Source: an uncultured Bacteroidales bacterium
Lineage (GTDB): Bacteria; Bacteroidota; Bacteroidia; Bacteroidales; UBA932
Direction of reading: 5' to 3'
Length of the DNA stretch: 64,000 bases
Assembly: GCA_900318565.1 (NCBI GenBank)
Contig: ONLD01000002.1
Span: 1,861 to 65,860, forward strand
Part shown: piece by piece, positions 9,181 through 30,599 of the stretch
How the letters are laid out: each line of letters begins with the position of its first letter
Numbering within the stretch: the first letter of the stretch is position 1
Position numbers and translations under genes: made by a program
Notes under the pieces: generated by a model
The model's database searches: none
The model's input: only the letters and a program-made list of their open reading frames with translations
Told to the model about the DNA's origin: nothing

Positions 9181-11298
9181 ATGAACCGTAAACTACTATA
9201 CTTTATATGCTTTGCAGCTATAGTCCTGGGCTCCGCAGCGTGCTCCAGGGAGGACACTCCGGGAGCCGGATCCGGACAGGAAGGGCTCTATGCCATCATA
9301 TCCGAAGGGCTTGATTCCAAAGTATATATGGATGCCGACCGCAAAGTCTACTGGAATGCAGGCGACAAGGTATCAGTATTCAACGGCAGCACTGCCAACG
9401 AGGAATACGCCTTTGCCGGGCAGGACGGCGACAAGTCCGGAAAGATCGAGAAGGTCGCCGGCACTGCTGCGGGCACCGGAAGTCCCGCCGAGGGCGTCCG
9501 GGCCGTTTATCCCTACGGCGAGGATGTCACACTGTCCGGCGAAACACTGTCGCTGACGCTCCCCGCGCAGCAGGCCTTCGGCTCAGGGACCTTTGCCCCG
9601 GGAGCCAGCCCTATGGCAGCCTATTCCACAGACAACAACCTGTCGTTCAAGAACTTGTGCGGTCTTCTGATAGTCCGGCTATACGGCCCTTCGAGCATCT
9701 CTTCCATTACCCTGAAAGGCAACGGCGGCGAGTTCCTTGCCGGCCGCGCACAGGTGACCTTCAAGGACGGTATCCCGGAGTGCAAGATGCTGGCGGAAGG
9801 CGCTGCAAAGGAAATAACCATCCAGTGCGACAGCCCCGTCACGACCGGCGCTGACGAGTCCGGCGCAACGGAGTTCATCTTCGTGCTGCCCCCTGTTTCC
9901 TTCAGCCGCGGCATCTCCATCTCGGCCATTGACAACCAGGGCCGCAGCTATGAGGCCGGCACCGGCGGAGCAGTCGAAGTCAGGCGCTCGGCAATATCGA
10001 GAATGGCGCCTCTCCGGGCCAATCTCAGCAATCCCGTACAGGCCGAGAAAGGATCCCCCCTGCCTGCGTGGAAGCAGGGCTACCTGGACATACATTCCAT
10101 CAACGGCGGACGCGGCGAGGCCTTCTACTACATCTTGCCCGACGGCACCACGATGCTGGTAGACGCGGCCGGCGGCAACGACTTCGAGATCGAGGGCGAA
10201 GGCGGCTCGGGCATATACTCCCGCCCCTCCCGTCAGTACTCCAGCGGCAACGTCATCGTGAGGTACATACAGCATTTCGCTCCCTGGCAGGCCGGCGGCA
10301 AGATCGACTACTTTATGCTGTCGCACTACCACTCCGACCATATGGGCTCCTACACCAAGTACTTCTCCAACTACGGCTGGAAGGTCGTGGATAGCAACGG
10401 CACCATCACGCCCGCCATCAACCTTAACGCCGGAGGCTTCCTGCTCAACGGACTCCCCGAGGTGGGCTACTACCTGCCTATCGTAAAGCTCATAGACCGC
10501 GGCGAATGGAACGACCGGGCATCCAACGTCTGGGAAAGCGCCCCCGGAAGGCGCCAGAACTACTATAACTTCATCGACTGGACCACCCGCGCCAACGGCA
10601 CCGTGCGCGAGAAACTGGCTATCGGGCACACGGACCAGATAGTGCTCAAGCATGACGCGGCGCTATACCCCGGTTTCCAGATCCGGGGAATCGCCGCAGG
10701 CGGCGACATCTGGACCGGAAGCGGAACCTCGGTGAATACTACGTATCTTCCCACTGCCGAACAGTGCCTCGCAAACATCGACACCTACGACATCAACGAG
10801 AACATCCTGTCCTGCGTCTTCACGCTCAAGTACGGCAAGTTCGACTGGTTTTCCGGAGGCGACATCCAGTACAACGGCTACACCACCTACAGCTGGAAGG
10901 ACATAGAGAAACCCATCTCCAAGGTGGTGGGCAAGGTGGAAGCTATGAAGGCCAACCACCACAGCACCAAAAGCACCAACAGCACGACGCTGCTCTCCGT
11001 CCTCAAGCCCGACTGCTACATAGTGGGCGTATGGACCGAGAACCAGCCCAATCCCGCCACTATGAAAAGGGTGTACACGGCCAACAAGAACGTAAAGATA
11101 TTCGCCACCAACCTGGCCGACAGCATAGTAAGCGAACTCAAGGCGGCCGGCATCGACCCCGCCACCTTCTCCGCCACAAGCGGACATATAGTCCTGCGTG
11201 TGCTCCCCGGAGGCGGGTCCTACTACGTGTATGTACTTGACGACTCCGACTTCAACTACAGGGTAAAAGACATCTACGGTCCATTTACGGCTTCATAG
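9181..11298 (+). CDS. Surface lipoprotein: fimbrillin-like N-terminal module fused to a ComEC-like MBL-fold domain
   Basis: Lipobox signal MNRKLLYFICFAAIVLGSAACS. The N-terminal module carries KVYWNAGDKVSVF...AVYPY. The C-terminal domain from about 10048 carries LPAWKQGYLDIHSINGGRGEAFYYILPDGTTMLVDAAGG, the HxHxDH motif (LSHYHSDHMG), KANHHSTKSTNSTTLLSVLKP and the tail GHIVLRVLPGGGSYYVYVLDD. Confidence 0.85.
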   Translation: MNRKLLYFICFAAIVLGSAACSREDTPGAGSGQEGLYAIISEGLDSKVYMDADRKVYWNAGDKVSVFNGSTANEEYAFAGQDGDKSGKIEKVAGTAAGTGSPAEGVRAVYPYGEDVTLSGETLSLTLPAQQAFGSGTFAPGASPMAAYSTDNNLSFKNLCGLLIVRLYGPSSISSITLKGNGGEFLAGRAQVTFKDGIPECKMLAEGAAKEITIQCDSPVTTGADESGATEFIFVLPPVSFSRGISISAIDNQGRSYEAGTGGAVEVRRSAISRMAPLRANLSNPVQAEKGSPLPAWKQGYLDIHSINGGRGEAFYYILPDGTTMLVDAAGGNDFEIEGEGGSGIYSRPSRQYSSGNVIVRYIQHFAPWQAGGKIDYFMLSHYHSDHMGSYTKYFSNYGWKVVDSNGTITPAINLNAGGFLLNGLPEVGYYLPIVKLIDRGEWNDRASNVWESAPGRRQNYYNFIDWTTRANGTVREKLAIGHTDQIVLKHDAALYPGFQIRGIAAGGDIWTGSGTSVNTTYLPTAEQCLANIDTYDINENILSCVFTLKYGKFDWFSGGDIQYNGYTTYSWKDIEKPISKVVGKVEAMKANHHSTKSTNSTTLLSVLKPDCYIVGVWTENQPNPATMKRVYTANKNVKIFATNLADSIVSELKAAGIDPATFSATSGHIVLRVLPGGGSYYVYVLDDSDFNYRVKDIYGPFTAS

Positions 11299-11299
11299 G

Positions 11300-11476
11300 A
11301 TGATAAAAAAGACTATTCTCTGCATAAGCGCCATCGCCCTGGCCTGCTCCTGCACAATCGAGCCTGCAGCCATTTCAGGGCCAGGTTTCAGCGCCGCCAT
11401 AGAACAAGAAGGCAAGACATACGTCGACGCACAGTTCCACTTATGCTGGCACGCCGGCGACAGATTCAAGAATTGA
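11300..11476 (+). pseudogene. Truncated N-terminal fragment (58 aa) of a fimbrillin-like lipoprotein paralog
   Basis: MIKKTILCISAIALACSC lipobox followed by ...DAQFHLCWHAGDRFKN*. This matches the (K/G)VxWxxGDxI motif of the neighbouring lipoproteins but stops immediately. Its last 11 nt overlap the 3' end of the convergent sigma gene. Confidence 0.45.
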
Positions 11477-12005
11477 AGAAATCCGCGAGCGCTACACGCA
11501 AGTGCCTGAGCGCCTGCGAAATGCGATATTCGATAGTCTTGACGGACACTCCGCCGTCCTTGGCAATATCTTTATATTTGAGGCCGTCCGACCTGCTTTT
11601 CATAAAGGCCGCCCTCTGCTCCTCGGGAAGAGCGTCAAGGGCGTCTGAGAGCATCGTTCCCAGCTCCCGCACGCTAGAATAAGAACTGTCGGACACGGCA
11701 TCCAGCACTGACTGCCTGACGCTGGAATGATAACGCTCCCTGAGGTTCTTTCGGTCCAGGACGCTCAAGCACCTGTTGCGCACCGCAGAATAAAGATAGG
11801 CACCCACTTCGCCTCTGATATGCATCGAGGAGGCATTTTTCCACAAGTTGAAAAAGACATCCTGGACGACATCACGGGCGTCTTCCGCTTCAAGGTAATG
11901 TCCGGCATACGACTCAAGCACGGGATACCATTTCCGGAAAAGCTTTTCAAACGCTTCCCGGTCGCCGTTCGCGATAAGATATATGTTCCGCTTGTCGTCG
12001 TTCAT
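11466..12005 (-). CDS. ECF (sigma-70 family) RNA polymerase sigma factor
   Basis: 179 aa. Region 2 (FEKLFRKWYPVLESYAGHYL...DARDVVQDVFFNLW) and region 4 HTH (LPEEQRAAFMKSRSDGLKYKDIAKDGGVSVKTIEYRISQALRHLR) are both present. The gene is divergent from a FecR gene. Confidence 0.93.
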   Translation of the reverse strand: MNDDKRNIYLIANGDREAFEKLFRKWYPVLESYAGHYLEAEDARDVVQDVFFNLWKNASSMHIRGEVGAYLYSAVRNRCLSVLDRKNLRERYHSSVRQSVLDAVSDSSYSSVRELGTMLSDALDALPEEQRAAFMKSRSDGLKYKDIAKDGGVSVKTIEYRISQALRHLRVALADFFNS

Positions 12006-12024
12006 AGATATTTATCCGGATGTG

Positions 12025-12032
12025 CAAATATA
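12025..12032 (-). promoter_or_regulatory. Bacteroidetes -7 box (TATATTTG on minus strand) upstream of the ECF sigma gene
   Basis: The reverse complement of CAAATATA matches the TAnnTTTG consensus. It lies 19 nt upstream of the start codon at 12005. Confidence 0.45.
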
Positions 12033-12078
12033 AAAATTTTTTTTAGGGTGAATGCTTACTTGCCTGTCTATATAGTGT

Positions 12079-13098
12079 ATGAAAACCGATAAAGACATTG
12101 AGGACCTGCTGCCGGGATACGCTGCAGGTACCATTTCTGAAGAAGACGGAAAACTCGTGGATATGTGGATTTGCCGCAGCGAGGCAAACCGCGCAAAGGC
12201 GGAAGCTGTCTTCCGTGCCGAATATTTGCGCTCACAGGCCGACAGCATCGACAGCGCCGACACCGACAGTGCGCTGAAGTCCGTAAAGAAAAGAATCCGC
12301 AGGCACCAAGGACGCAGCACCGCCCGCGTGCTTGTGTACTGCGCCGCCGCTTTGAGCATACCCCTGATGGTCGCTACGGGCTGGCTGTCTTCGAAATTGA
12401 AGCAGGATGCCCGCTTAGCCCCTGTTGAAATCAGCTGTACCACCGGTATGGTGTCGCGCGCCACTCTTCCCGACGGAAGCCGCGTGTGGCTGAATTCCAA
12501 TTCGAAGCTCAGCTATCCGGCCGTTTTCGGACACGAACGCAGAGTCACCCTCGAAGGAGAAGGGTACTTTGAGGTGGCTAAAGACCACGGACGCAAATTC
12601 ATAGTTGAGACAAGCAGCCAGCAGGTTGAAGTCACAGGTACCGAATTCGACATTGAGGCATATCCGGACAGCGGCCCTGAAATCAGGACCACCCTGATCT
12701 CCGGAAGCATCCGTCTCCACTGCCCCGACGCCTCCGGCAGGGAGCACGTCTTCGAAGTCAGCCCGGGAGAGCAATACATCTACAACCGCGAATCCTGCAA
12801 GATACGGCGGGGAAGCGCCGAAGGCAATGAAGTCACCGCCTGGACCGAAGGCAAGACAATACTGAACAACACCAGCCTCGAGGACGCCCTGCGGGCCATC
12901 GGCAACCGCTTCAACGTGGAATTCCTGGTGCGCAACGAAAAACTGCTCTCAAACCGCTACACCGGTACTTTCAGCGGGCAGCGGCTCGAAGTCGTGCTTG
13001 AGCACTTCCGCCGCACCACAAACATTCATTTCGACACTTCCGTGAAAGGAATGGACACCTACAATATCTCTGGACGACAAATAATCATCGTATATTAG
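12079..13098 (+). CDS. FecR-family anti-sigma factor / transmembrane sensor
   Basis: 339 aa with a central TM segment (VLVYCAAALSIPLMVATGWL). The periplasmic FecR-type block is LPDGSRVWLNSNSKLSYP...VTLEGEGYFEV. The gene sits between the ECF sigma gene and an STN-bearing SusC gene. Confidence 0.9.
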   Translation: MKTDKDIEDLLPGYAAGTISEEDGKLVDMWICRSEANRAKAEAVFRAEYLRSQADSIDSADTDSALKSVKKRIRRHQGRSTARVLVYCAAALSIPLMVATGWLSSKLKQDARLAPVEISCTTGMVSRATLPDGSRVWLNSNSKLSYPAVFGHERRVTLEGEGYFEVAKDHGRKFIVETSSQQVEVTGTEFDIEAYPDSGPEIRTTLISGSIRLHCPDASGREHVFEVSPGEQYIYNRESCKIRRGSAEGNEVTAWTEGKTILNNTSLEDALRAIGNRFNVEFLVRNEKLLSNRYTGTFSGQRLEVVLEHFRRTTNIHFDTSVKGMDTYNISGRQIIIVY

Positions 13099-13106
13099 TA
13101 ACACTT

Positions 13107-16100
13107 ATGGGAAGAACAATTCATCTCTTGACCCGGATCACGTTGCTGTTGTGCACAATGTGTATATCTTTGCAACTGCTTGCCCAAACACGCACGGTCT
13201 CGGTCAAAGCCGACGGCCAGAAGGTCGCGGATGTGCTCAAAATCATTGAGCAGCAGAGCGGATTCACTTTCTTCTACAACGATGCGGCCTTCGACAAAAA
13301 CCGCCGCATCAGCATCGACGCGCAGAATAAAGACGTGCTCGCCGTGCTGGAAGAAGTTTTCCGCGGAACCGACGTAAGAGCCTCCATCATCGAAGGCAAT
13401 ATCGTGCTGAGCAACAAGCCTCAGGCAGGTCAGGACCAGCAGGGCCAGACCAATCCGCTTGTACAGGGCACCGTACTCGATTCCGAAGGACAGCCCTTAC
13501 CGGGCGCGTCCGTATTCGTTAAGGGCACGAAGACTGGCACTGTGACAAATAATGCAGGTGCTTTCTCCATTCCCGCAAAGGAAGGTGACGTGCTCACCGT
13601 ATCCTTCCTCGGCTTTAGGGACCTGGAAATCAACGTGGGCAAGAAAGCTCTATACACTGTTGCACTAGAGACCGACGCCGAATTCCTGGACGACGTCGTG
13701 GTGGTCGGCTACGGCACCCAGAAAAAGGTCAACCTGACTGGAGCCGTGGGCGCCATCTCCTCCGAAGTGCTTGACAACAAGCCAATTACGCAGACATCTA
13801 CTGCGCTTCAGGGTAGCATTCCCGGAGTCACCGTCACCACCAACGGCGGCGGTCCGGGCGCCGATACGGGCAACATCCGCATCCGCGGTATCGGCACCTT
13901 CGGCGGCAGCAGTGCGGCCCCGCTGGTGCTCATCGACGGCATCGAGGGCAGCATCAACTCGGTGGATGCCACGCAGATAGACAAGATCTCCGTGCTCAAG
14001 GACGCAGCCTCCTCGGCAATCTACGGCTCCCGTGCAGCCAACGGCGTCATCCTCATCACCACCAAACGTGCCGACAAGGGCAAGTCCAGCGTAAGCTACC
14101 GCGGTTACGTGGGCTGGCAGACCCCTACCACCACGCCCGACACCGTAGGCCCCATCGACTATATGATACTCAACCGCGAGGCCACTGAGAATGACGGCGG
14201 GACCTCCATCTACACAGATGAGTACATAAGCAACTACCTCAAGAACAACTGGCTGGATCCCGACAACTACCCCATCGTCAACTGGAAGCAGCACGCCCTG
14301 AACGGCAGCGGCCTGATGCATCAGCACAACCTGAGCCTTAGCGCCACTTCCGGCAAGATACGCACCCTCACCAGCCTCGGCTTCCTCGACCAGAGGGGCA
14401 TAGTCAAAAGCGCCGATTTCAAGCGCTACAACTTCCGCAACAATATGAACCTGGAAATCAACGACAAAGTCGGTATGCGCTTCGACCTTTCCGGAAGTTA
14501 CGGCCTGCGGCACTATCATCCCAACCAGAGCGGCTTCTTCAATATGATGAATGCCCGCGACCCTCTGTTCCTGGCAGAATGGTCAAACGGCACCTACGCC
14601 CCGTTCACCGGCGGTACAGTCAACCCCCTGCCTATGATGGACCTGGGCGTGGGCGGACAGGTAACCGGCGAGACCTTCCGACTGGCCGGAGCACTGGCCC
14701 TGAGCTACAAGCCTTGGAAATGGCTCACCCTTGAAGGTACCCTAGCCCCCCGAATCACTCAAAGCGAAACACATACATTCCACGACCTGGTTACCTATTA
14801 TTCAGATGCTTACGGAACTGTATCCCCCATCAAAAACAGGGAATACAACTCCCTGCGCGAGAGCATCAGCCGCACCATCTACGGCAACTACCTGTTCACC
14901 GCCAAGGCCCACCACAAGTTTGCACAGGCTCACGATGTGACGCTGCTTGCAGGTGCCTCCTACGAAGATATGGACAACCGCACTCTGGGAGCCTACAGGC
15001 GTGATTTCCAGTATCCTCAGTACCACACCATCAATGCAGGTGCCGACAACGAACTCAAGGAAAACAGCGGAGCCGAATACCAGTGGGCGCTGGCCTCCTT
15101 CTTCGGCAGGTTGAACTACAACTACAAGGAGCGCTACCTCTTCGAAGCCAATATCCGCTTCGACGGATCCTCCCGTTTCGCCAAAGGGCACAGGTGGGGC
15201 ATCTTCCCATCAGCATCCGCTGCCTGGCGAATCACAGAGGAGCCCTGGATGCAAGGAGTCAAGAAGAGCATCAACGAGCTTAAGATACGCGCATCCTACG
15301 GCCAGCTGGGAAACCAGAACCTCGGCGATGACTATTATCCGACAATCCAGAGGCTTACGATTTCCAGCATCTCGGCCAACGACATAATCTATCCCATCGT
15401 GGGCCTGAACAACCTGGCCAACGAGGAGATTACCTGGGAGACCTCCGAGATGTACGACGTGGGTATCGACGGAACCTTCTTCGACAAGCTTACCCTTACC
15501 GCCGACTGGTACTACAAGACCACCTACGGAATCTTGATGGAGCTTGACATCCCCGCCAGCATTGGCCTCAACGCGCCGTTCCAGAATGCCGGCACCGTCC
15601 GCAACGTAGGCTGGGAAGTAGGCGTGGGCTACCACGACCGCAAGGGCGACTGGAGTTGGGGCGTGGATGCCAACCTGAGCGACGTTGTCAACCAGATCAT
15701 AGATATGAAGGGCACCGCATCCGGCTCGCTGCTGCGCAACGAGGAGGGTTATGCCATCAACTCCATCTACGGCCTCAAGTGCATAGGTATGGCCCGCAGC
15801 CAGGAAGAGGCCGACCAGGTCAACGCCACTTGTCCGCAGTACGGTATGGAGACCAAGCCCGGCGACCTTATCTATGAAGACGTGGCCGGTGACTTCAAGG
15901 TTGACGAAAACGGTGAATACATCCTCGACGCCAAGGGCAACAAGATTCCCGCCCCTGACGGCAAGATCGACGACCAGGACCGTCAGATAATTGGCAGCAC
16001 CATCCCCCGCTACACTTTCGGGACCACTCTCAGCATAGGCTGGAAGGGCTTCAACCTAAGCGCCCAGTTCCAGGGCGTGGGCAAGTTGAACGCCTACCTC

Positions 16101-16505
16101 AACGGCTACTACACCCAGCCCTGCGTACAAGGAGGCACCTTCCGTACCGAGCATCTGGACCGCTGGACTCCCGACACTCCCGACGGGCACTTCCCCCGCT
16201 TGAGCTACGCCAGCGAGCTGAGCAAGAAGAATTCCAGCTTCTGGATGGCGGATGCCGCGTACTGCCGCCTCAAGAACCTGCAACTCAGCTACACCTTCCC
16301 CAAGAAGTTGATGAAGAAAGCCAGGATAAGTAACCTGACGCTCTTCGCCAACGCCACCAACCTCTTCACCCTCACCAACTACTGGCAGGGTTACGACCCG
16401 GAGAATATGTTCACGACCAGCGGCGACGGCGTACAGGCCGGAGCTACCGCCACGAACTACCCCCTGGTATCTACCTACACATTCGGAGTGGACATTAAAT
16501 TCTAA
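13107..16505 (+). CDS. SusC/RagA-family TonB-dependent transporter with N-terminal STN signalling domain
   Basis: 1132 aa. STN-like block: VSVKADGQKVADVLKIIEQQSGFTFFYND. Carboxypeptidase-regulatory-like block: GTVLDSEGQPLPGASVFVKGTKTGT. TonB-box/plug: DVVVVGYGTQKKVNLTGAV...IRIRG. The C-terminal barrel ends in F. Confidence 0.95.
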   Translation: MGRTIHLLTRITLLLCTMCISLQLLAQTRTVSVKADGQKVADVLKIIEQQSGFTFFYNDAAFDKNRRISIDAQNKDVLAVLEEVFRGTDVRASIIEGNIVLSNKPQAGQDQQGQTNPLVQGTVLDSEGQPLPGASVFVKGTKTGTVTNNAGAFSIPAKEGDVLTVSFLGFRDLEINVGKKALYTVALETDAEFLDDVVVVGYGTQKKVNLTGAVGAISSEVLDNKPITQTSTALQGSIPGVTVTTNGGGPGADTGNIRIRGIGTFGGSSAAPLVLIDGIEGSINSVDATQIDKISVLKDAASSAIYGSRAANGVILITTKRADKGKSSVSYRGYVGWQTPTTTPDTVGPIDYMILNREATENDGGTSIYTDEYISNYLKNNWLDPDNYPIVNWKQHALNGSGLMHQHNLSLSATSGKIRTLTSLGFLDQRGIVKSADFKRYNFRNNMNLEINDKVGMRFDLSGSYGLRHYHPNQSGFFNMMNARDPLFLAEWSNGTYAPFTGGTVNPLPMMDLGVGGQVTGETFRLAGALALSYKPWKWLTLEGTLAPRITQSETHTFHDLVTYYSDAYGTVSPIKNREYNSLRESISRTIYGNYLFTAKAHHKFAQAHDVTLLAGASYEDMDNRTLGAYRRDFQYPQYHTINAGADNELKENSGAEYQWALASFFGRLNYNYKERYLFEANIRFDGSSRFAKGHRWGIFPSASAAWRITEEPWMQGVKKSINELKIRASYGQLGNQNLGDDYYPTIQRLTISSISANDIIYPIVGLNNLANEEITWETSEMYDVGIDGTFFDKLTLTADWYYKTTYGILMELDIPASIGLNAPFQNAGTVRNVGWEVGVGYHDRKGDWSWGVDANLSDVVNQIIDMKGTASGSLLRNEEGYAINSIYGLKCIGMARSQEEADQVNATCPQYGMETKPGDLIYEDVAGDFKVDENGEYILDAKGNKIPAPDGKIDDQDRQIIGSTIPRYTFGTTLSIGWKGFNLSAQFQGVGKLNAYLNGYYTQPCVQGGTFRTEHLDRWTPDTPDGHFPRLSYASELSKKNSSFWMADAAYCRLKNLQLSYTFPKKLMKKARISNLTLFANATNLFTLTNYWQGYDPENMFTTSGDGVQAGATATNYPLVSTYTFGVDIKF

Positions 16506-22984: not shown

Positions 22985-25450
22985 ATGACAATGAAAAAGT
23001 TAGTTAAAACCATACTGGTCGCAGCGGCCGTTCTTGCCGCTTTCGCTTGCAGTAAGGAAGTCCGCACTGAGACTCCTGCCGCCACCCCCGGGGCCATCCG
23101 TTTTACCGCCACTTTGGACCAGCCTGTCAAGGCAACCCTCGACGCTTACAAGGTATGCTGGGAAGAAGGCGACGTCATCGCAGTTTACAACGGCTCAGTT
23201 TGGGCCAACTCTACAGCAATCTCAGATGCCGACATCGAAGATGGTGGCCGCACCGCATCCTTTACCGTTTCTATCGGTGAGGCAGACTCGTACACTCTGG
23301 TCTATCCGGCATCTGCCATCTCTTCCGCCGCCCTGCCCGACGGCGCCCCCGCTGGCTCCATAATGCTCACCCTGCCCTCCGCACAGGTGATTCCCGCGGG
23401 CGGAACCATCGACCCCGCCTCACTCGTGCAGGTAGGCACAAGTACCGAGCCCACCAAGGTTACATTCAAGAATGCAGTATCGCTGGTGGAGTTCAAGGTT
23501 CCCGAAAACGGCATCTCTTCCGTATATCTTGAGGGCTTCACTCCAGAAGGTGGTGCCATCAGGATGTCAGGTGACGCACCTGTCGCCGTCGAACCCGGCG
23601 TCGCTGCCGGAACCGATCCTATCCTAAGCGTGAGCGGATCATTCACCGCCGGCCAGAACTATTTTGCCGCGGTATGGCCCCAAGCCGCAGTAGGGACTCT
23701 CCGTTTCTGCTTCTCCAAGGGCTCGCAGAAGGCCGTCCGCTCCGGGACATCGGCAGCAGGCTTCGACCTGCCCGTCAGCGGCGGGCGCAAGTTCGAAGAC
23801 TTCGGAACGCTTTCCTGGCTAGACAAGATACGCACCAAGGCTGACCTTGACCTTTGGGCCTCCATAGCCAACTTCTACGCCGCAGGCGAGGTGGCGGAAC
23901 TCGCAGCCGACATCAACTACGGCGGCGAGACCTGGAAGCCCGTCAACGGAAACGCCAATTCCGGTCATTTTGCCGGTATCTTCGACGGAGCCGGACACAA
24001 CATCTACAATATCGTGATTTCCGACGACGATCAGTTCCCCGGCTTCTTCTCCACACTTGCATCCAACGACAAGATGCTCCGCGTCAGGAACCTTACTCTG
24101 GGCCGTGACGGCGACCAGAGTTCCCTTGTAGTTTCGTCCTCGAGCAACGAGAATGCCGGCGCCCTTGCCGGCCGCATCAAGAATACCATCATCCAGAATG
24201 TTACGAACAACATTCCCGTCACCTACACAGGAGTCATTTCCAGCGGCACTCCAGTATTCGGAGGTCTGGTAGGCCGCTCTATGAACAATTCAGAGATCAG
24301 CTCCTGTACCAACAACGGCAATGTCGTAAGTACAAGCACTGGCGCGGGAATGTACTTCGGCGGAATCGTTGGCACGATCTACGACAATACAATAATCAGC
24401 AACTGTACCAACACCGGCCGCGTGGCCCGTGACATAGCTTCTACCAACAAGGGAGTTGTCGTATATGGAGGCATACTTGGACGTACCGGCAACGAAACCG
24501 ACGGATGCGTCATCACCGGATGTTCCAACACCGGCATAATTGAAAACACTGTCAATATCAAGGCCGGCCAGATATACTTCGGAGGTATTGTGGGTATGGA
24601 CGGAAGCGTTGCCACGGAATCCACCAAAATAAATCTCCAGGTTCTCAACTGTACCAACGAGGGCGCCATCAAAGGATTCAACCAAAGCCAGGCGTCTTAT
24701 GTTGCTGCCGGTGGCATAATGGGCCGTATGTCCAATGCCAACCTTGTTCAGGAGTGCGTCAACCTCGGCCCCGTAACAAAGTTAGGCAACCACTCAATTG
24801 AGGGCTGCTACGGCGGAATAATAGGTATGACTTCCGACGAGAACGGCCTTGTCAAAGACTGCATCAACGGCAAGAGCGGCGACCCAACCAAGGGCGCAGT
24901 ATCAGACATCCTGCAAACCGCTGGCAAGAATGAGCGTCTGGGCGGTATTTCGGGTTTCGCCCAGAGGGGCAATTACGAAGGATGCACCAACTATGCCATC
25001 GTTTCCTCTGCTGACGGCGCCAAACAGACCTATGTGGGCGGACTTACCGGCAACAGCACCGTAGGCAAGTTCAAGAACTGCTCAAACTTCGGCGATGTGG
25101 TTGTAGAAGCCCAGGCTGTTGATGGTATGATCCGCAGCGCCGGCGGCCTCATCGGCCTCCAGAATGGCAGCGCCAACGACAACCTCACCGGAGAGGGATG
25201 CGTCGTACAGTGCCGCGTCAGCTGCGGCGACGCCGTCAACGCCGGAATAGTTGTGGGACGCTTCTCCAACTCGGTCACCGCCGTGTGGGGCACATCTGCT
25301 TCGCCTATCAAGGTCAAATCCGGCTGCTCCGTCAACGACACCAATGTAACCGCATCCAACTACGGCTCTCTTCTCGCCGGTTCCGCCTACGGCATCACCG
25401 CCTCCGGCGTCGCCAGCGGCAACAACACTATTTGGGCAATATTTGAATAA
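22985..25450 (+). CDS. Surface lipoprotein: fimbrillin-like N-terminal module plus about 10 GLUG-type repeats
   Basis: 821 aa with lipobox LAAFACSK. The N-terminal module carries KVCWEEGDVIAVYN...LVYPA. The C-terminal half has periodic GG(L/I)xG motifs: FGGLVGRS, FGGIVGTI, YGGILGRT, FGGIVGMD, AGGIMGRM, YGGIIGMT, LGGISGFA, VGGLTGNS, AGGLIGLQ. Confidence 0.8.
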   Translation: MTMKKLVKTILVAAAVLAAFACSKEVRTETPAATPGAIRFTATLDQPVKATLDAYKVCWEEGDVIAVYNGSVWANSTAISDADIEDGGRTASFTVSIGEADSYTLVYPASAISSAALPDGAPAGSIMLTLPSAQVIPAGGTIDPASLVQVGTSTEPTKVTFKNAVSLVEFKVPENGISSVYLEGFTPEGGAIRMSGDAPVAVEPGVAAGTDPILSVSGSFTAGQNYFAAVWPQAAVGTLRFCFSKGSQKAVRSGTSAAGFDLPVSGGRKFEDFGTLSWLDKIRTKADLDLWASIANFYAAGEVAELAADINYGGETWKPVNGNANSGHFAGIFDGAGHNIYNIVISDDDQFPGFFSTLASNDKMLRVRNLTLGRDGDQSSLVVSSSSNENAGALAGRIKNTIIQNVTNNIPVTYTGVISSGTPVFGGLVGRSMNNSEISSCTNNGNVVSTSTGAGMYFGGIVGTIYDNTIISNCTNTGRVARDIASTNKGVVVYGGILGRTGNETDGCVITGCSNTGIIENTVNIKAGQIYFGGIVGMDGSVATESTKINLQVLNCTNEGAIKGFNQSQASYVAAGGIMGRMSNANLVQECVNLGPVTKLGNHSIEGCYGGIIGMTSDENGLVKDCINGKSGDPTKGAVSDILQTAGKNERLGGISGFAQRGNYEGCTNYAIVSSADGAKQTYVGGLTGNSTVGKFKNCSNFGDVVVEAQAVDGMIRSAGGLIGLQNGSANDNLTGEGCVVQCRVSCGDAVNAGIVVGRFSNSVTAVWGTSASPIKVKSGCSVNDTNVTASNYGSLLAGSAYGITASGVASGNNTIWAIFE

Positions 25451-25604
25451 ATTAATACGCAATATTATGATAATCAACAACTTATATACCCCCCCCAGAT
25501 CACAATCCGCCTAATTGAAAGTACTGGCATACTATGCGAAAGCAACATCCAGTCCAGAAGAGTCATCTCTGGTAATTGGGATGAAGAATAACACAATTCC
25601 TGCT

Positions 25605-27413
25605 ATGAAAAAGTATTTTGCTATCATTTGCCTGGCGATGGCAGCCATTGCCTGCAGCAAGGAGTCTGTTACCGAGACCCATCCCGAAGCCGAGGGCGTG
25701 CGCACCGTTACTCTGACTGCAACTCTTCCGTCAACTAAAGTCAACGTTGACCTTGAAAACAATGGCAAGGTCACTTGGAGCAGTGATGACAAGATTGCCG
25801 TCTACAATACCTACGGAGACAAATTTGAATTCACCGTGAAAGAAGGCGCGGGTACTGACAATGCTACTTTTGAGTGTTCTAGCTTCACGGGAACAATTGC
25901 TGACATTGCGGTGTTCCCTTATGACTGGGCCGGAGACACTATGGGCGAAATCACCATCCCTGAGTATAGGGAGAGAACTGATGACATTCCTGCCGTGATG
26001 GCCTCAAAAATTGAGGGCGGAGACGGCTCTGAAGTAAGTCCCCTGTATTTTAACAGCCTTATGGCCATTATTGAATTCACAATCAAGGATGTTCCTGCCT
26101 ACGCTTGCGCCTTCAAATTATGGTCCCAGAGTGGAGCACAATTAAACGGAACATACACAATAAACGCTTCAAGAGATGCCTTGGAATCAGTGCCTGTAAG
26201 GAATTCCGGTCAAATTATTTATTTCCCGTATAAGACTGCATATGGCTCTGATGCAACAGTTAAAGTATATGCTGCCATTCCGGCTTATGAATACAAAGAC
26301 CTTCGCATAAGAGTATTGGACGGTGATGAAGATGTAATAGAAGGCACAAGCAAACTTATTCCTGAAAGCAACTTCAAAGGACAAAGTGCTGATGCCTACA
26401 TTACTATGCCGGAGCTGAACATACGTTCTATGGTAGGCAGCGCCCGCGACAACTTCGTGAAGGTTGAGGGCATCAAGTGGGCAAAGGGAAATTTGAGGGC
26501 CTGGAAGGATGGCGGAGATGATGGCACTGGTGACGGCTGGGTAACGGGCTGGAATATTTACGGACACCAATGGGATACTCAATATGCCTTGATAAATGAG
26601 AGCGTTGATGGTTCTTCTGTTTCATATACTATCAATAATAGCAATTATAAGGAAGGCAATATTTATACCCATTGGGATCATTTTAGTTGGGGAACGTTAG
26701 GAAGAGCTTCAAGGGTTCACAACTGCCCGATTATATGTGACGCTAAAGAATTTGATCTTTGGGGTAAAGTTTTTGACTTAGAAGGAAGTACATCCGGTAC
26801 AGTTTCTTCTGCGACAACCGTATTAACCGGAGATAGTCAGTGGATTGAGAATGAAACTTTCGGAACTGTAAATCCTACCTATGCCGGAGATGTTGCATAT
26901 TGGGCCAGCAAAGGCCAGTACCGTATGCCAAAAAGTAGCGAGATTATCAAATTGTATAGCAAAAAGGGAGAAGTCAGTGAAAGAGCAAATATGCTAGTCG
27001 GTTATTATAAAGATGGCGAAAAAATTATTAATGGCCACCTGTTTACGTCTACACCTATCCATTGGAATTCCACGCCCAGTTACAATACAGAAGCTTGCGA
27101 ATTCACGTTAGCGGATATTGAGTCTGGTCTATTCCTTCCATCAAATGGGATACGCGGAAATATCGGAACTTCTCCAGGGACCTTCTCAGCAACAGGCGTT
27201 AATGGGTACAATGCATGGGGTGGTTATTGGTGTGGCAATTTCGGAGGAGATATAGAAACTGATATATACAAGAATAACGCAAGATGCATTTGTTGGAAAA
27301 CCGACAACGAACTAATGTATGGTTACACAGTTTCTATCAGTAATTCTAGCGGGATTCTGTACACTGGCAATACAAAAGTCGGCAACTGTATCCGCCCGGT
27401 ATATATCCCGTAA
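25605..27413 (+). CDS. Surface lipoprotein: fimbrillin-like N-terminal module plus divergent FISUMP/DUF1566-like C-terminal domain
   Basis: Likely start MKKYFAIICLAMAAIACSK at 25605; the tracked ORF begins at an upstream TTG at 25515. The N-terminal module carries GKVTWSSDDKIAVYN...AVFPY. The C-terminus carries KWAKGNL, GDVAYWASKGQYRMPKSSEI, GLFLPSNGIRG, GGYWCGN and CIRPVY. It is a paralog of 27705-30599. Confidence 0.85.
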   Translation: MKKYFAIICLAMAAIACSKESVTETHPEAEGVRTVTLTATLPSTKVNVDLENNGKVTWSSDDKIAVYNTYGDKFEFTVKEGAGTDNATFECSSFTGTIADIAVFPYDWAGDTMGEITIPEYRERTDDIPAVMASKIEGGDGSEVSPLYFNSLMAIIEFTIKDVPAYACAFKLWSQSGAQLNGTYTINASRDALESVPVRNSGQIIYFPYKTAYGSDATVKVYAAIPAYEYKDLRIRVLDGDEDVIEGTSKLIPESNFKGQSADAYITMPELNIRSMVGSARDNFVKVEGIKWAKGNLRAWKDGGDDGTGDGWVTGWNIYGHQWDTQYALINESVDGSSVSYTINNSNYKEGNIYTHWDHFSWGTLGRASRVHNCPIICDAKEFDLWGKVFDLEGSTSGTVSSATTVLTGDSQWIENETFGTVNPTYAGDVAYWASKGQYRMPKSSEIIKLYSKKGEVSERANMLVGYYKDGEKIINGHLFTSTPIHWNSTPSYNTEACEFTLADIESGLFLPSNGIRGNIGTSPGTFSATGVNGYNAWGGYWCGNFGGDIETDIYKNNARCICWKTDNELMYGYTVSISNSSGILYTGNTKVGNCIRPVYIP

Positions 27414-27540
27414 GATGAACGACAGTAATCAACACATTAGGTAAAGATGAAGACAGTAGCTCTGATGTTTTTGTCTGTATGTGTACTGGGGCCTACAACA
27501 CCATCTAGGCAACTTTTGCCGCAGAGTAATGGCATCTGGT

Positions 27541-27577
27541 CGGGCAAGGTCCTGTTTTAGGACGGGGACCTTGCCCG
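27541..27577 (+). promoter_or_regulatory. Strong hairpin in the intergenic region between the two paralogous lipoprotein genes
   Basis: CGGGCAAGGTCC (27541-27552) is a perfect inverted repeat of GGACCTTGCCCG (27566-27577), with a 13-nt loop. No clear T-run follows. Confidence 0.45.
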
Positions 27578-27632
27578 GCGATATGCCGCAGAGAGCAATG
27601 AGAGAGTGATTGGCGGGCAAGGTGTTGTCCTG

Positions 27633-27666
27633 CCGGCCGTCCTCAAATAGGGCCGGTTTTGAGGAC
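27633..27666 (+). promoter_or_regulatory. Second nested hairpin in the same intergenic region
   Basis: GTCCTCAAA (27639-27647) pairs with TTTGAGGAC (27658-27666). An alternative overlapping stem pairs CCGGCC (27633-27638) with GGCCGG (27651-27656). It lies 39 nt upstream of the ATG at 27705. Confidence 0.45.
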
Positions 27667-27704
27667 AAACGGAGGAAAAACGGAGCAATAATTAAGGAAT
27701 TGAT

Positions 27705-30599
27705 ATGAAGAGAGTCTTTTTGATATTGTTAGCCACCGGGCTGATGGCTGCCGGATGCAGCAGGGAGCCTGCGGGTCCTGAGGTACCTGCTGAGGCGACC
27801 GACGGCCGCACCCTTGTCTTGACGGCCTATGCCCCGGCCACCAAAGTATCCGTGGCCACCAGCGGTAAAGTTTCCTGGACTGCCGGTGACGAGATTGCCC
27901 TGTACAACAGTTCGGGGCAGAAATTCAAGGCCATCCTGACCGCGGGCGCGGGCACTTCCCAGGGCACCTTCACCTGCACTTCCTTCAGCGGGGCTCCCGG
28001 CCCGGCGGCAGTCTATCCTTACGCCCTCGCAGGTGACTCACCCGGTACCGTCACCATCCCCCACATAAGTGAGCGTAGTGATAGCACTCCCGCCCTTATG
28101 GCCTCCAGATTCAGTATGGAGGGCAGCCAGCCCGGCAGCCTGTATTTCAAGCACATAGCCCCAGTCATCGACATAACGCTCCACGATATCCCTGCATACG
28201 CCAGGGCGCTGGTGCTCAACGCAGAAGGGAAACGGATTAGCGGCGAATTCAACTTTGATACCTCCATCCCAGGCCCCATAACGACCGACGGTATTAATTC
28301 TACACAAATAATCACATTCCCCGGCGGGGCTGGCTATGGTTCTGACTTGCACTTCCGGCTCGCCATCCCGGCCGGGGAGTATTCTTCCTTGTACATCACA
28401 ATGCTTGATGGTGATGAGACCCCCATCGAAGGCCTTGAAAAGCTTAAGTTCAGCAGCACCTCTGCAACCCTCTCACCAGCAGACTACCTTGCGATGCCCA
28501 CTCTCAACGTACGCTCAAAGTGCACCCGCAGCAGCGCCGTGCGCAAAGTGGAAGGCACCTGGTGGGCGGCCGGCAACTTGATTGCTGACGGGAAGACCTC
28601 CGAGGGCTTCCAGAGCGGCTGGCGCCTGGGCTCGAAGCAGTACGAATTCCTGGGCTGCGACCAGGTGGGCACAAGCGGCACGGGCGTCACCATCACCCAG
28701 TCATCCTCCGCCTTCGACCGCTTCAACTGGGGCGGAATAGCAGGAGACGCCTGGAAGCCGGACGCTGGCTATATGCTCCCCAACGATGCAAAATTCAGCA
28801 TCGCCGGACGCTTATTCAGAGCCTCCAAAGGCAGCGGCGAGGACATTGAGGCTTCCGAGATCAGCGGAGAGGACTGCTTTGCAGTTCCTTCCGGCGGCTC
28901 GTTCGCTACCGGCAGCGAGCTTCACGGCGACGTGGCCTTCTGGGCCAGCAAAGGGCAGTACCGTATGCCCACGGCGGCCGAAATCTCGGTCCTGCGTGCA
29001 GGCAGTTCTTCTACCAACGCCAGCGGCAAGGCTGGATACGTCAATGTCGGCGGCAACCGCATCTACGGCATACTGCTGACTTCCACCCCGTCCTGGGAAA
29101 GCTCCACCCTCGAAACCGATGCCGTGGAACTCACTCCCGCCGACCTGGAAAGCGGACTGTTCCTGCCCAAGGCCGGCCGCGGCCGTTACATCAGCGGCAG
29201 CAACACCAACAAAATCTACTACGTCAACGCCCAGGGATATTACCGCAGCGGCACCTTCTCGGGGCTTGACCTGAGCAAGTATCCCGACTCCGACCACGCC
29301 ACCACCGTGCTCGGATTCCGCGCCGGGAACTCCTGCGACTATGGCTACACTGTGCATCTTAACAGCGATGCCGCCTACGGTGTAGGCCACGTGCAGAAGT
29401 GCCTTCCGATACGCCCCGTACTGTGCTCAAATGGCACTGAACCCGTCCCCGACCCGCTGCCGCAACCTGATGCCAGCAGTCTCTCCCCCTGGCAGAAGGG
29501 CTATCTGGACATACACGCCATCAACTCCGGCCGCGGCGAATGCACGCTGGTCATTATGCCCGACGGCACTTCCCTGATGATAGACGCCGGCGAATACTAC
29601 ACGTCCTCGGCCAAGGCCGTGGACCAGAAGCCCAACTCCGGCGTCCGTCCCTTCAAGGTATATACGACGTACGCAAAATACTTCCTGCAGGCCACCGGGC
29701 ACGAGTATCTGGACTACTTCCTGCTGTCCCACTACCACATCGACCATATGGGCCAGAGGCGCGACTCCTTCGGCAAGAGCGGCGACGGCTACTGCCGCAG
29801 CGGCGTTATGGCCGTGTATGACGACCTGCCCATCAAGAAGCTGGTGGACCGTTGCGGGCCCACCGCCACCCCCACTACAAGCGACTACAGCACAGATATT
29901 TACGAAGACTTCCGCCAGTTTGCCGAGTACCGGGAATCCCGGGATGGTATGGCCTGGTATGCCTTCAATTTGAACGCTAACGGCAACTACAAGAAGCAGT
30001 TCATCCCCAAATACGACAATTCCTACGACCTGACCGTGTATAACCTCGGAGCCAACGGCAAGTACTGGAACGGCAGCGGCTTCGGTACTTACAGCGGGTC
30101 GCTGACCGAAAACGGAGAATGCGCCACAGTGCTCATCTCTTACGGAGATTTCGACTACTACAGCGGCGGCGACTGCGCCTGCCAGACCGGTATGATGCAG
30201 CGGATTGTCAACGGTTGGGGAAACAAAGTGGAGGCAATGAAAGCCAACCACCATATGTACCACGACACTCTTAACGAGTCTGCAGCTGCAATCCTGCAAC
30301 CAAAGGTGACCGTAGCGCAGGTCTTCGATTCCGACAAGCCCGGCGATCCGGCTTTCAGCCTGCACAGACAATACGGGGACGTGTTCATTACCAACATCCA
30401 CTCCGGACGTCTTGACAACACCGCCTCCATCAAGGCAGGCACTCCGGTAGATGACCTGGGTTCAAAAGTCAAAGACTACGGCGGGCATTTCGTGATACGA
30501 GTGTCTCCGGGCGGACAAGAGTTCTACGTGTACAAACTGCGCGACACCGACTTCTCCTTCTCTGTAGAAGCAACATACGGACCATACACTTGCTACTGA
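27705..30599 (+). CDS. Three-module surface lipoprotein: fimbrillin-like N-terminus, FISUMP/DUF1566-like domain, and C-terminal ComEC-like MBL domain
   Basis: 964 aa with lipobox LMAAGCS. N-terminus: GKVSWTAGDEIALYN...AVYPY. Middle: WWAAGNL, GDVAFWASKGQYRMPTAAEI, GLFLPKAGRG, LPIRPV. From about 29480: LSPWQKGYLDIHAINSGRGECTLVIMPDGTSLMIDAGE, LSHYHIDHMG, YGDFDYYSGGD, EAMKANHH, GHFVIRVSPGGQEFYVYKL. Confidence 0.9.
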   Translation: MKRVFLILLATGLMAAGCSREPAGPEVPAEATDGRTLVLTAYAPATKVSVATSGKVSWTAGDEIALYNSSGQKFKAILTAGAGTSQGTFTCTSFSGAPGPAAVYPYALAGDSPGTVTIPHISERSDSTPALMASRFSMEGSQPGSLYFKHIAPVIDITLHDIPAYARALVLNAEGKRISGEFNFDTSIPGPITTDGINSTQIITFPGGAGYGSDLHFRLAIPAGEYSSLYITMLDGDETPIEGLEKLKFSSTSATLSPADYLAMPTLNVRSKCTRSSAVRKVEGTWWAAGNLIADGKTSEGFQSGWRLGSKQYEFLGCDQVGTSGTGVTITQSSSAFDRFNWGGIAGDAWKPDAGYMLPNDAKFSIAGRLFRASKGSGEDIEASEISGEDCFAVPSGGSFATGSELHGDVAFWASKGQYRMPTAAEISVLRAGSSSTNASGKAGYVNVGGNRIYGILLTSTPSWESSTLETDAVELTPADLESGLFLPKAGRGRYISGSNTNKIYYVNAQGYYRSGTFSGLDLSKYPDSDHATTVLGFRAGNSCDYGYTVHLNSDAAYGVGHVQKCLPIRPVLCSNGTEPVPDPLPQPDASSLSPWQKGYLDIHAINSGRGECTLVIMPDGTSLMIDAGEYYTSSAKAVDQKPNSGVRPFKVYTTYAKYFLQATGHEYLDYFLLSHYHIDHMGQRRDSFGKSGDGYCRSGVMAVYDDLPIKKLVDRCGPTATPTTSDYSTDIYEDFRQFAEYRESRDGMAWYAFNLNANGNYKKQFIPKYDNSYDLTVYNLGANGKYWNGSGFGTYSGSLTENGECATVLISYGDFDYYSGGDCACQTGMMQRIVNGWGNKVEAMKANHHMYHDTLNESAAAILQPKVTVAQVFDSDKPGDPAFSLHRQYGDVFITNIHSGRLDNTASIKAGTPVDDLGSKVKDYGGHFVIRVSPGGQEFYVYKLRDTDFSFSVEATYGPYTCY

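Follow-up and report, generated by a model that had tools for sequence, protein, structure and literature searches.

A Predicted Substrate-Sensing SusCD Locus of an Uncultured Bacteroidales Bacterium With Cargo From a Pce/ComEC-Like Metallo-Beta-Lactamase Family

Results

Gene Content of the Locus

We analysed a stretch of 64,000 nucleotides (nt), hereafter called the window, from an uncultured Bacteroidales bacterium (UBA932; assembly GCA_900318565.1, contig ONLD01000002.1). Its positions 9181–30599 hold a Sus-like locus in which a SusC/SusD pair and its signalling genes are accompanied by seven cargo genes, here named A to G, encoding metallo-beta-lactamase (MBL) fold proteins and modular lipoproteins (Table 1). 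The open reading frames (ORFs) of this region were scanned with Pfam and NCBIfam. The genes listed in a preliminary description of this DNA, i.e., those of an ECF sigma factor, a FecR anti-sigma factor, a SusC with an STN domain, and a SusD followed by its cargo, were all present, but the strand of the sigma gene, the number of ORFs, and the FISUMP/DUF1566 label of two cargo proteins had to be corrected. The sigma gene lies on the minus strand, divergent from fecR and convergent with the gene of protein A. Between 18326 and 30599 there are six same-strand ORFs (B to G), and the eight announced are only reached by adding uxuB and uxuA, up to position 32589; the intergenic gaps contain only ORFs of at most 79 amino acids (aa), none with evidence of being a gene. 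The junctions range, as described, from a 10-nt overlap (C/D, 21429–21438) to a gap of 291 nt (F/G, 27414–27704), and the gene upstream of the sigma factor is indeed related to the cargo, the C-terminal 420 aa of protein A being 27–34% identical to the other MBL domains. We recovered no glycoside hydrolase (GH), polysaccharide lyase (PL), or carbohydrate esterase (CE) family in any ORF of 9181–30599, in agreement with the preliminary description.

Table 1. Coordinates of the genes of the locus and of its downstream neighbours, with the evidence for each assignment.
Feature	Position	Strand	Evidence
Protein A, predicted surface lipoprotein, fimbrillin-like N-domain and C-terminal Pce/ComEC-type MBL domain (aa ~286–705)	9181..11298	+	Lipobox LGSAAC/S
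ECF sigma factor	11466..12005	-	Sigma70_r2, Sigma70_r4_2, Sigma70_ECF (Pfam)
FecR-type anti-sigma factor	12079..13098	+	FecR E 1.3e-14, FecR_C E 1e-13
SusC-type TonB-dependent transporter with N-terminal STN	13107..16505	+	STN (E 5.5e-10), CarbopepD_reg_2, Plug
SusD-type predicted surface substrate-binding lipoprotein	16511..18313	+	SusD_RagB E 4e-46, SusD-like_3, lipobox
Protein B, predicted surface lipoprotein, fimbrillin-like N-domain and AS87_RS02955-effector-like C-domain (aa ~395–645)	18326..20263	+	Lipobox, NF052644 homology
Protein C, stand-alone MBL, no lipobox	20260..21438	+	Motifs, AlphaFold2 model, Foldseek
Protein D, lipoprotein MBL	21429..22703	+	Lipobox LMLAAC/G, invariant residues kept, 45% identical to C
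Protein E, lipoprotein, fimbrillin-like N-domain and GLUG-repeat region	22985..25450	+	PF07581 29.6 bits, lipobox
Protein F, lipoprotein, Mfa/FimA-like N-domain and aromatic-rich C-domain	25605..27413	+	AlphaFold2 model, Foldseek
Protein G, lipoprotein, F-type N- and C-domains fused to C-terminal MBL	27705..30599	+	37% to F, 36–39% to C/D, lipobox
uxuB (D-mannonate oxidoreductase) and uxuA (mannonate dehydratase)	30603..32589	+	NF006132 318 bits, UxuA E 6.5e-125
GH2 glycosidase	32867..34954	+	Glyco_hydro_2_C, Glyco_hydro_2_N; NF050095 397 bits
Calcineurin-like phosphoesterase, SPI-type N-terminal signal (non-lipoprotein)	35988..37103	+	Metallophos E 2.2e-8
FAD_oxidored (PF12831) lipoprotein	37608..39026	+	PF12831 E 6.7e-112, lipobox LLVSAC/D
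SASA esterase	39238–40668		

The susC and susD genes are 5 nt apart, with the adjacency that defines a Sus-like polysaccharide utilisation locus (PUL), and the set required for trans-envelope signalling (STN on SusC, FecR, and ECF sigma factor) is complete within the locus. The -7 motif of Bacteroidota housekeeping promoters, TAnnTTTG, was observed just upstream of the sigma gene (12025–12032, minus strand), of the downstream Band_7 gene, of the Metallophos esterase gene (35976, promoter-like), and of the SASA gene, and it was not found upstream of fecR-susC, E, F, G, uxuB, or GH2. This distribution is compatible with ECF-dependent read-through, for which it is weak evidence; sigma-70 promoter scans do not apply to Bacteroidota. 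A terminator-like hairpin of 8 pairs with a T-rich tail is located at 22727–22745, 24 nt past the stop codon of D. It may split SusC-SusD-B-C-D from E, F, and G, the number of such terminators in the window being at chance level. An Rfam scan detected tRNA only, and no riboswitch in the locus.

A Family of Pce/ComEC-Type MBL Domains

The four MBL domains previously announced were all recovered. They correspond to the C-terminus of A, to the whole of C and D, and to the C-terminus of G (aa 577–963), and share 27–45% identity with each other; the domain of A, 34% identical to C, has kept all metal-site residues. Pfam matched Lactamase_B (PF00753) to only two of the four, in both cases below the gathering threshold (18.2 and 20.0 versus 22.7 bits), so that the cut-off was reached by none of them, and the ComEC_Rec2 model TIGR00361 scored 17.5 bits versus a cut-off of 190. 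The MBL call rests on motifs, a structure model, and a profile search. When the four paralogues were aligned with 27 homologues, H105, H107, D109, and H110 (the HxHxDH motif), E231-N232, D252, H278-H279, and H356 were invariant, and the N-terminal residues D28, H30, R36, and D53 were conserved across the 31 sequences. Because the metal-site residues are invariant, all four copies look catalytically competent.

The AlphaFold2 model of protein C had a mean predicted local distance difference test score (pLDDT) of 90.9. Its top Foldseek match was the MBL domain of ComEC (9ic4; E 1.3e-14, TMt 0.81, 20% identity), followed by Pce/CbpE (2bib/1wra; E 2.4e-14 to 5e-12), all three with probability 1.0. 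The beta-CASP nucleases CPSF73 and RNase J were about six orders of magnitude weaker. When the profile of the MBL family was compared with the sequences of the Protein Data Bank (PDB), Pce was recovered with an E-value of 2.3e-10 and ComEC with 1.2e-3, and the Pce alignment covered HxHxDH, the Asn and Asp ligands, the HH motif, and a long insert ahead of HxHxDH. The label "ComEC-like" was thus right at the level of the fold, while the sequences of the family lie closer to Pce. The pattern of COG2333-like proteins, that is HxHxDH plus Asn/Asp/His ligands on an alpha-beta/beta-alpha MBL fold, is present. Pce and ComEC are both phosphodiesterases, and structure and profile together lead us to predict that the family consists of Pce/ComEC-type phosphodiesterases.

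Two other MBL enzymes were considered and rejected. The MBL-type phytase (PMC6584368) belongs to a different branch, that of Lactamase_B_2/ZipD-like proteins, and an MBL-type sulfatase was matched by fold at rank 8 only (arylsulfatase 8gyg, E 6e-8). A BFVD fold search also gave two unnamed viral proteins, F8UBN2 and B6CXF5, whose matches to the MBL model (E 5e-15 and 4.5e-14) equalled those of ComEC and Pce in strength but could not be used.

The family is large, with more than 1151 clusters at 90% identity, whose members are named "MBL fold metallo-hydrolase" or "hypothetical," except for one JGI record naming a homologue "beta-lactamase superfamily II metal-dependent hydrolase." Relatives were found in over 508 GTDB species representatives. 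Their hosts include numerous Alistipes, one of which is the cultured A. timonensis JC136, as well as Dysgonomonadaceae, Muribaculaceae, Prolixibacteraceae, Niabella, Albibacterium, and Wenyingzhuangia, and also Opitutaceae/Lacunisphaera, Pseudoxanthomonas, and one metagenome-assembled genome (MAG) of Planctomycetaceae. The nearest relatives of the window, with 90% identity, are the rumen MAGs RUG13810 and RUG12551.

Related Loci Have a CAZyme-Free Core and Phosphoesterase Neighbours

We called and clustered the ORFs of 80 loci containing members of the MBL family (78 of them non-redundant) and annotated the representatives of recurrent clusters. SusC or SusD was present in 41 loci, many contigs being incomplete. 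In 23 loci the SusD was 54–95% identical to that of the window; these orthologous loci come from rumen MAGs, Alistipes (including A. timonensis), and Dysgonomonadaceae. Their SusC was 57–92% identical, and the loci of Alistipes and Dysgonomonadaceae, with 59–66% identity in SusD, also carried MBL genes. Such conservation of SusD across families is unusually high and suggests that the 23 loci share a common ligand. The gene order of the orthologous group consists of SusC, SusD, one or two stalked lipoproteins, and one to four (mostly two or three) MBL genes, and no carbohydrate-active enzyme (CAZyme) was found among its recurrent neighbour families. Three loci (L004–L006) have an upstream MBL gene where A lies in the window. 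The sigma gene is inverted, as in the window, in L004 and L005 and forward in L001. As a separate observation, the ECF sigma factor was only 48–62% identical among relatives, far below SusC (88–92%) or SusD (92–95%).

Among all 78 loci, the family most often beside MBL genes was the PF12831 FAD oxidoreductase (25 loci), followed by GDPD (18), Metallophos of two types (12), a sodium:solute symporter (9), DUF6772 (8), Zn-ADH, MFS, and GH92 (7 each), PfkB (6), and His_Phos_2 (5). Other recurrent neighbours were alkaline phosphatase, type I phosphodiesterase, a glycerol-3-phosphate-dehydrogenase-like protein, Fe-ADH_2, mannitol dehydrogenase, FGGY, SASA, and GH3, and GH20 was seen occasionally. 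An extra phosphoesterase was present in 30 of the 78 loci versus a CAZyme-like gene in 11. In the Alistipes MAG Zagget8 (L013), the order is His_Phos_2-SusC-SusD-lipoprotein-MBL-MBL-GDPD, and A. timonensis (L012) has the same core of SusC, SusD, lipoprotein, MBL, and GDPD; in both, GDPD lies on the same strand, after the MBL genes. The orthologous locus L056 has a ribokinase equivalog beside SusC (340 bits, above the cut-off), together with a symporter and a Zn-ADH. We also observed that the MBL locus of two rumen MAGs (L009 and L008) goes on into a run encoding a FAD oxidoreductase, a glycerol-1-phosphate-dehydrogenase (G1PDH)-like protein, a GlpT/PgtP-like carrier, and a HAD-IIA phosphatase. 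In L009 (8013–14563), one of the orthologous loci, this run is on the same strand, with overlapping or tightly spaced genes; the G1PDH-like protein scored 149 bits with NF002022, and the carrier, of the OPA type, was nearest to PgtP and GlpT (291 and 255 bits). The HAD-IIA family includes NagD of Escherichia coli.

The preliminary description had proposed a SusCD import system with trans-envelope signalling for a non-canonical substrate, with phosphodiester-linked polymers among its candidates. The CAZyme-free core of the 23 loci, the assignment of the MBL family, and the phosphoesterase neighbours strengthen this proposal, and we consider some phosphodiester compound to be the probable substrate.

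Stalked Lipoproteins Carry the Cargo Domains

An all-against-all BLAST of the cargo revealed that A, B, E, F, and G have in common an N-terminal domain of about 250 aa with 24–42% identity (25–30% between A and the four others). F and G are alike over about 570 aa (aa 1–572 of G), and the G-type fusion was also found in L001, L004, L005, L008, L014, L028, and L068. The statement that nearly all cargo proteins are preceded by lipoprotein signals was borne out: of the seven, only C has no lipobox. In the other six and in SusD, the lipobox is followed by acidic residues. In Bacteroides, an acidic stretch after the lipobox is the lipoprotein export signal, and by analogy we read the seven proteins as surface-exposed. 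Protein C, whose hydrophobic N-terminus has no Cys, is probably periplasmic. For protein F (ORF 25515–27413), the ATG at 25605 is the most likely start, giving the signal peptide MKKYFAIICLAMAAIAC.

The AlphaFold2 model of F (pLDDT 86.6) placed its N-domain among the FimA/Mfa "cell adhesion proteins" (4k4k, 3ufi, Mfa4 5dhm, and Mfa2 5nfi; Foldseek E 7e-6 to 5e-4), i.e., with a predicted type V pilin, fimbrillin-like fold, and one homologue carries PF13149. This whole-chain search resolved the N-domain only and gave no fold match for the C-domain. Two lectin-like proteins with FISUMP/DUF1566 domains had been announced; the two paralogues, F and G, are real, but the label has no support from profile models, and FISUMP/DUF1566 (PF09603/TIGR02145, PF07603) was rejected because the C-domains of F and G matched nothing in Pfam even at E ≤ 10 and nothing in NCBIfam. 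A precomputed PF07603 match exists only on two remote homologues (28% identity), and it is "faint" for the one looked up. We presume F to be a substrate-binding protein; its C-domain is conserved in the protein that follows SusD in the Alistipes loci. Protein E is, as described, a GLUG-repeat protein (two stretches, above the PF07581 cut-off of 20.5 bits) and has homologues in 8 rumen-clade loci. When B, E, and F were used as queries against PDB sequences, nothing meaningful was recovered. The putative binding domains are acidic (pI 4.4–5.6) and rich in aromatic residues, as in lectins rather than DNA binders.

The gene of protein F also differs from its flanking cargo genes in composition, with 44% G+C (GC) and 43% GC at third codon positions (GC3) versus about 57% GC and 64–77% GC3, and the gap upstream of it has 39% GC. 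This suggests a copy that was acquired or recombined recently, with a relative of lower GC as its source.

The number of these lipoproteins bears on whether the substrate is a polymer at all. The locus could serve to scavenge small organophosphates (phospholipid head groups, glycerophosphodiesters, phosphocholine esters, or inositol phosphates): the recurrent neighbours of the MBL genes include GDPD, alkaline phosphatase, His_Phos_2, and Metallophos, and Pce also hydrolyses small phosphocholine esters. However, five stalked binding lipoproteins and three predicted surface enzymes better fit a polymer or a particle-bound substrate, and regulation by ECF sigma/FecR/STN senses the substrate and not, as the Pho system would, phosphate. 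The rumen and the gut are also not obviously phosphate-limited. Such scavenging has a precedent in the PusCD loci, which pair SusCD with phosphodiesterases and phosphomonoesterases, not with CAZymes (PMC8115612), but we regard it as very improbable here.

The C-Domain of Protein B and Nucleic Acids

Protein B gave a weak NCBIfam match (E 0.006, 15.9 bits) to NF052644, the "T9SS-dependent surface endonuclease, AS87_RS02955 family." A word-indexed profile search with its C-domain found three close relatives only, whereas an index-free search found 57 representatives. Scanned singly, 12 of 12 diverged homologues of B matched NF052644, with 16–35 bits (best 35.4, E 6.9e-9) against a cut-off of 260, and B and these homologues covered profile positions ~38–169, the part outside the C-terminal sorting domain (CTD); one of the 57 representatives (P0222) reached positions 40–234 with 56 bits. 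In short T9SS-tailed forms, the last ~70 profile positions correspond to the sorting domain, from which it follows that the C-domain of B matches the whole effector part. Since all scores are far below 260 bits, B is a remote relative of NF052644 and not a member, with homology to the effector domain only; it also has a lipobox and no CTD match. The C-domain may serve for binding and not for catalysis. B-type lipoproteins follow SusD in the rumen-clade loci.

In two other homologues (P0204 and P0207), the B-like domain is fused to a MetallophosN/Metallophos/MetallophosC enzyme with cyclic-nucleotide-phosphodiesterase-like matches. Both sit in other SusCD loci with DUF5689-like proteins and GH2, the locus of P0204 also having an S1-P1 nuclease, GH20, and Zn-ADH. 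These belong to a second class of SusCD loci (L082, 1–18342; L085, 2306–13956), which we note here for its B-like Metallophos fusion; the stretches examined held no MBL gene, and it is L082 that has the S1-P1 nuclease, GH20, and Zn-ADH.

These observations bear on a second explanation, the utilisation of nucleic acids, in which B and the surface MBL proteins would be nucleases acting on extracellular DNA or RNA, SusCD would take up oligonucleotides, and the periplasmic MBL and the Metallophos esterase would convert them to nucleotides and nucleosides. The AS87_RS02955 protein of Riemerella anatipestifer is reported to cut both DNA and RNA, on the basis of one study as presented in a review (PMC12398890), but according to the same source its published critical residues are hydrophobic and not catalytic, and the similarity of B to it is far below the family cut-off. 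ComEC was the top structural match of the MBL model, with CPSF73 and RNase J as the next fold neighbours, and the C-terminal domain of ComEC is described as a demonstrated nuclease (PMC8579336); in contrast, the sequence profile favoured Pce over ComEC by seven orders of magnitude. The fusion of B-domain relatives to Metallophos in SusCD loci with S1-P1 nuclease and DUF5689 (the DdbD family), the ribokinase beside SusC in L056, and the HAD-IIA protein of L009 would also fit nucleic acids. On the other hand, GDPD, the G1PDH-like and GlpT-like proteins, polyol dehydrogenases, GH92, GH20, and GH2 have no role in nucleic-acid breakdown, the putative binding domains are all strongly acidic (the C-domain of B has a pI of 4.4 and a net charge of -16), and the B-type domain occurs in the rumen clade only, in contrast to the far wider distribution of the SusCD-MBL core. 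We regard nucleic-acid utilisation as a serious but doubtful alternative.

Genes Downstream of the Locus

The locus is followed by uxuB (which starts 3 nt after G), uxuA, GH2, Band_7, the Metallophos esterase, the PF12831 lipoprotein, the SASA esterase, and, farther on, a His_Phos_2 phosphatase. The GH2 gene lies 2.3 kb past the end of G. Its product, whose nearest named family is the beta-glucuronidase LacZ4 (NF050095, cut-off 950 bits), is probably periplasmic, given its SPI-type, non-lipoprotein signal. In a 76%-identical relative (L001, 19522–21176), Band_7 and Metallophos come straight after the last cargo gene (an MBL gene), and uxuB, uxuA, and GH2 are missing, so that these three genes form a lineage-specific insertion outside the conserved locus. 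Indeed, only L004 and L014, the two closest relatives, have uxuB/uxuA adjoining the locus (after G), uxuBA and GH2 are missing from every Alistipes locus, and the GH2 genes near other related loci are relatives at the family level only (25–28% identity). A uronate-containing polymer, which had been put forward because of the uxu genes, is therefore no longer retained, and a uronate or glucuronide substrate was rejected as a property of the locus.

Two side observations concern this insertion. The uxuB gene is 96–98% identical in the two closest MAGs, above the cargo genes (84–90% where measured). In the gap between uxuA and GH2 (32673–32822), a stretch of 50 aa is 70% identical to the long-type (614 aa) PF12831 FAD oxidoreductase of L020, and we read it as a gene remnant of a past rearrangement at the insertion point.

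The same genes bear on another explanation, an ordinary glycan PUL whose enzymes escape recognition. Either the MBL proteins would be a new class of glycan-active enzymes, for instance sulfatases, esterases, or lyases, or the enzymes would be found among the unassigned domains of B, E, F, and G, and GH2 and uxuBA would process a glucuronide glycan. The proximity of uxuB to G and the secretory signal of GH2 fit this explanation, as do the lectin-like character of the acidic and aromatic-rich binding domains and the arylsulfatase among the fold matches. The MBL family is also present in polysaccharide degraders (Wenyingzhuangia, Niabella, Opitutaceae, and Planctomycetaceae), and GH92, GH3, SASA, or a sulfatase-like gene lies near some relatives. 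However, the metal-site pattern and the nearest homologues are those of phosphodiesterases, the 23 orthologous loci have no recurrent CAZyme family, loci with an extra phosphoesterase are more numerous than those with a CAZyme-like gene, and uxuBA and GH2 are absent from the relatives cited above. An ordinary glycan PUL appears unlikely.

In contrast to the inserted genes, the Metallophos esterase is a conserved neighbour of the locus: a copy with 90–92% identity closely follows the last MBL gene in L068 and, with Band_7 in between, in L001/L016. Farther downstream, the stretches 37608–42051 and 46478–47728 encode the PF12831 lipoprotein, the SASA esterase, and His_Phos_2, families recurring beside MBL genes elsewhere, with a Big_2 lipoprotein among them; they may belong to a wider functional neighbourhood. 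Near 48 kb, where the GC content drops from about 59% to about 50%, an IS110-family transposase (47986–49002), a tRNA (49195–49268), and a full-length serpin (49388–50614) are grouped. The segment 58001–60000 has 38% GC versus 47–63% in the rest of the window.

Discussion

Teichoic-Acid-Like Polymers as the Leading Candidate Substrate

Of the substrates proposed in the preliminary description, teichoic-acid-like material and nucleic acid are both retained and are not separated by our data, in contrast to the uronate polymer. We tentatively place first a teichoic-acid-like polyol- or glycosyl-phosphate polymer of the cell wall, with nucleic acid as a close second. This choice is based on the preference of the profile for Pce, on the neighbouring GDPD, G1PDH-like, GlpT-like, and HAD proteins, polyol dehydrogenases, and occasional exo-glycosidases, and on the acidic, aromatic-rich binding domains.

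The domain assignments can be arranged into a working mechanism, the steps of which we infer from them. The fimbrillin-stalked lipoproteins A, B, E, F, and G would catch, at the cell surface, an anionic phosphodiester-linked polymer freed from other microbes. The surface MBL domains of A, D, and G would cut its phosphodiester bonds, to which B may contribute, and SusD and SusC would import the fragments. The MBL protein C, in the periplasm, and the adjoining Metallophos esterase would then complete the breakdown. Substrate arriving at the STN domain of SusC would free the ECF sigma factor from FecR, and the operon would be induced.

Several points weigh against a teichoic-acid-like substrate. 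Pce strips phosphocholine from teichoic acid and leaves the backbone uncut, and the MBL fold is promiscuous. The locus of the window has no glycerol-phosphate or polyol genes; those mentioned above come from relatives whose MBL proteins are 39–57% identical, and the G1PDH-like and GlpT-like matches of L009 are below the NCBIfam cut-offs. The counts of neighbour families are raw, i.e., given without background frequency, and since only recurrent clusters were annotated, CAZymes present as single copies in some loci could have escaped. Finally, the C-domain of B, the ribokinase of L056, and the S1-P1 and DUF5689 proteins beside B-domain relatives point toward nucleic acid.

SusCD loci are usually read as glycan machines, and predicted PULs without CAZymes are usually left unexplained. 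The MBL family described here sits in SusCD or TonB-dependent-transporter loci with phosphoesterases, glycerol-phosphate, or polyol genes. If its members are phosphodiesterases acting on teichoic or nucleic acids, this would explain how the abundant Bacteroidales of the rumen and gut, including Alistipes, recycle phosphorus and carbon from microbial necromass, and the family would become a new marker for PUL annotation. It is conceivable, although we hold it with considerable doubt, that we are dealing with the first recognised type of teichoic-acid utilisation locus, a widespread SusCD system of Bacteroidota in the rumen and gut. Its stalked, surface-anchored Pce-like MBL "teichoicases" would act on Gram-positive neighbours, or on the debris of these, whose wall or lipoteichoic acid would be stripped off and imported. 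In that case, glycerol-phosphate and polyol products would feed the GDPD, GlpT-like, and glycerol-1-phosphate-dehydrogenase-like steps, related TonB-dependent versions would exist in Verrucomicrobiota, and the locus would represent a new cross-phylum route of cell-wall recycling together with a new activity of MBL-fold enzymes. An orthologous locus (L012, SusD 63% identical) is present in a cultured strain, Alistipes timonensis DSM 25383, which makes these proposals directly testable.

Comparison With Known Systems

Our literature search found no published characterisation of this MBL family and no link between it and SusCD loci, nor any paper on the use of teichoic acids by Bacteroidota or relevant to DUF6772. 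Several known systems nevertheless resemble parts of the locus. With the Sus-like PULs governed by ECF/anti-sigma signalling, it has in common the adjacent SusC and SusD, STN, FecR, the ECF sigma factor, the lipoproteins downstream of SusD, and the division between surface lipoprotein enzymes and periplasmic enzymes. It differs in its conserved core, which is devoid of GH, PL, and CE families and whose enzymes are predicted MBL phosphodiesterases.

Among proteins of solved structure, Pce/CbpE of Streptococcus pneumoniae (1wra, 2bib) is the best match of the MBL family by profile and the second best by fold; the two align at HxHxDH, at the Asn and Asp ligands, and at the HH motif, and share the long insert that precedes HxHxDH. 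Their identity is however only about 16%, the MBL family has additional conserved motifs (N-terminal PLPxWxEG and C-terminal GHVVIRV...GPF), our Pfam scans detected no choline-binding repeat family, and the context is that of Gram-negative lipoproteins and SusCD. The C-terminal MBL nuclease domain of ComEC (9ic4), the best match by fold, has the same COG2333-type metal site, but the MBL domains studied here are not fused to a DNA channel, score far below the TIGR00361 cut-off, and are more weakly matched by profile than in the case of Pce. Similarly, the AS87_RS02955 family and the C-domain of B and its 12 homologues are alike in the non-CTD part, whereas B scores well under the family cut-off and is a lipoprotein rather than a T9SS substrate.

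Two published systems apply the logic of PULs to phosphorus-containing substrates. In Flavobacterium, the PUSI and PUSII loci (PusCD; Lidbury et al., PMC8115612) associate a SusCD-like pair with phosphodiesterases and phosphomonoesterases instead of CAZymes, and co-localisation of a SusCD pair with putative phosphodiesterases is also observed here. They are however induced by phosphate depletion and contain Metallophos, PhoA, or GDPD-type enzymes, with no MBL reported (PMC8115612), whereas our locus is coupled to a substrate sensor of the ECF/FecR/STN type and has stalked proteins predicted to be surface enzymes. The ddbABCDEF loci of gut Bacteroidales (bioRxiv 10.1101/2025.03.18.642099) likewise apply PUL-like logic to a phosphodiester polymer, DNA, with lipoprotein nucleases on the outside, a TonB-dependent transporter, and a periplasmic nuclease. 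The partner of the transporter is DUF5689 (DdbD) in these loci and SusD in ours, and the paper on ddb does not mention MBL, ComEC, or SusD. We rejected membership in the ddb group, since no DUF5689 was found in the proteins of the window and the transporter partner is SusD. By comparison with all these systems, we rate the locus as a substrate-sensing SusCD system whose predicted catalytic cargo comes from a previously uncharacterised family of Pce/ComEC-like phosphodiesterases.

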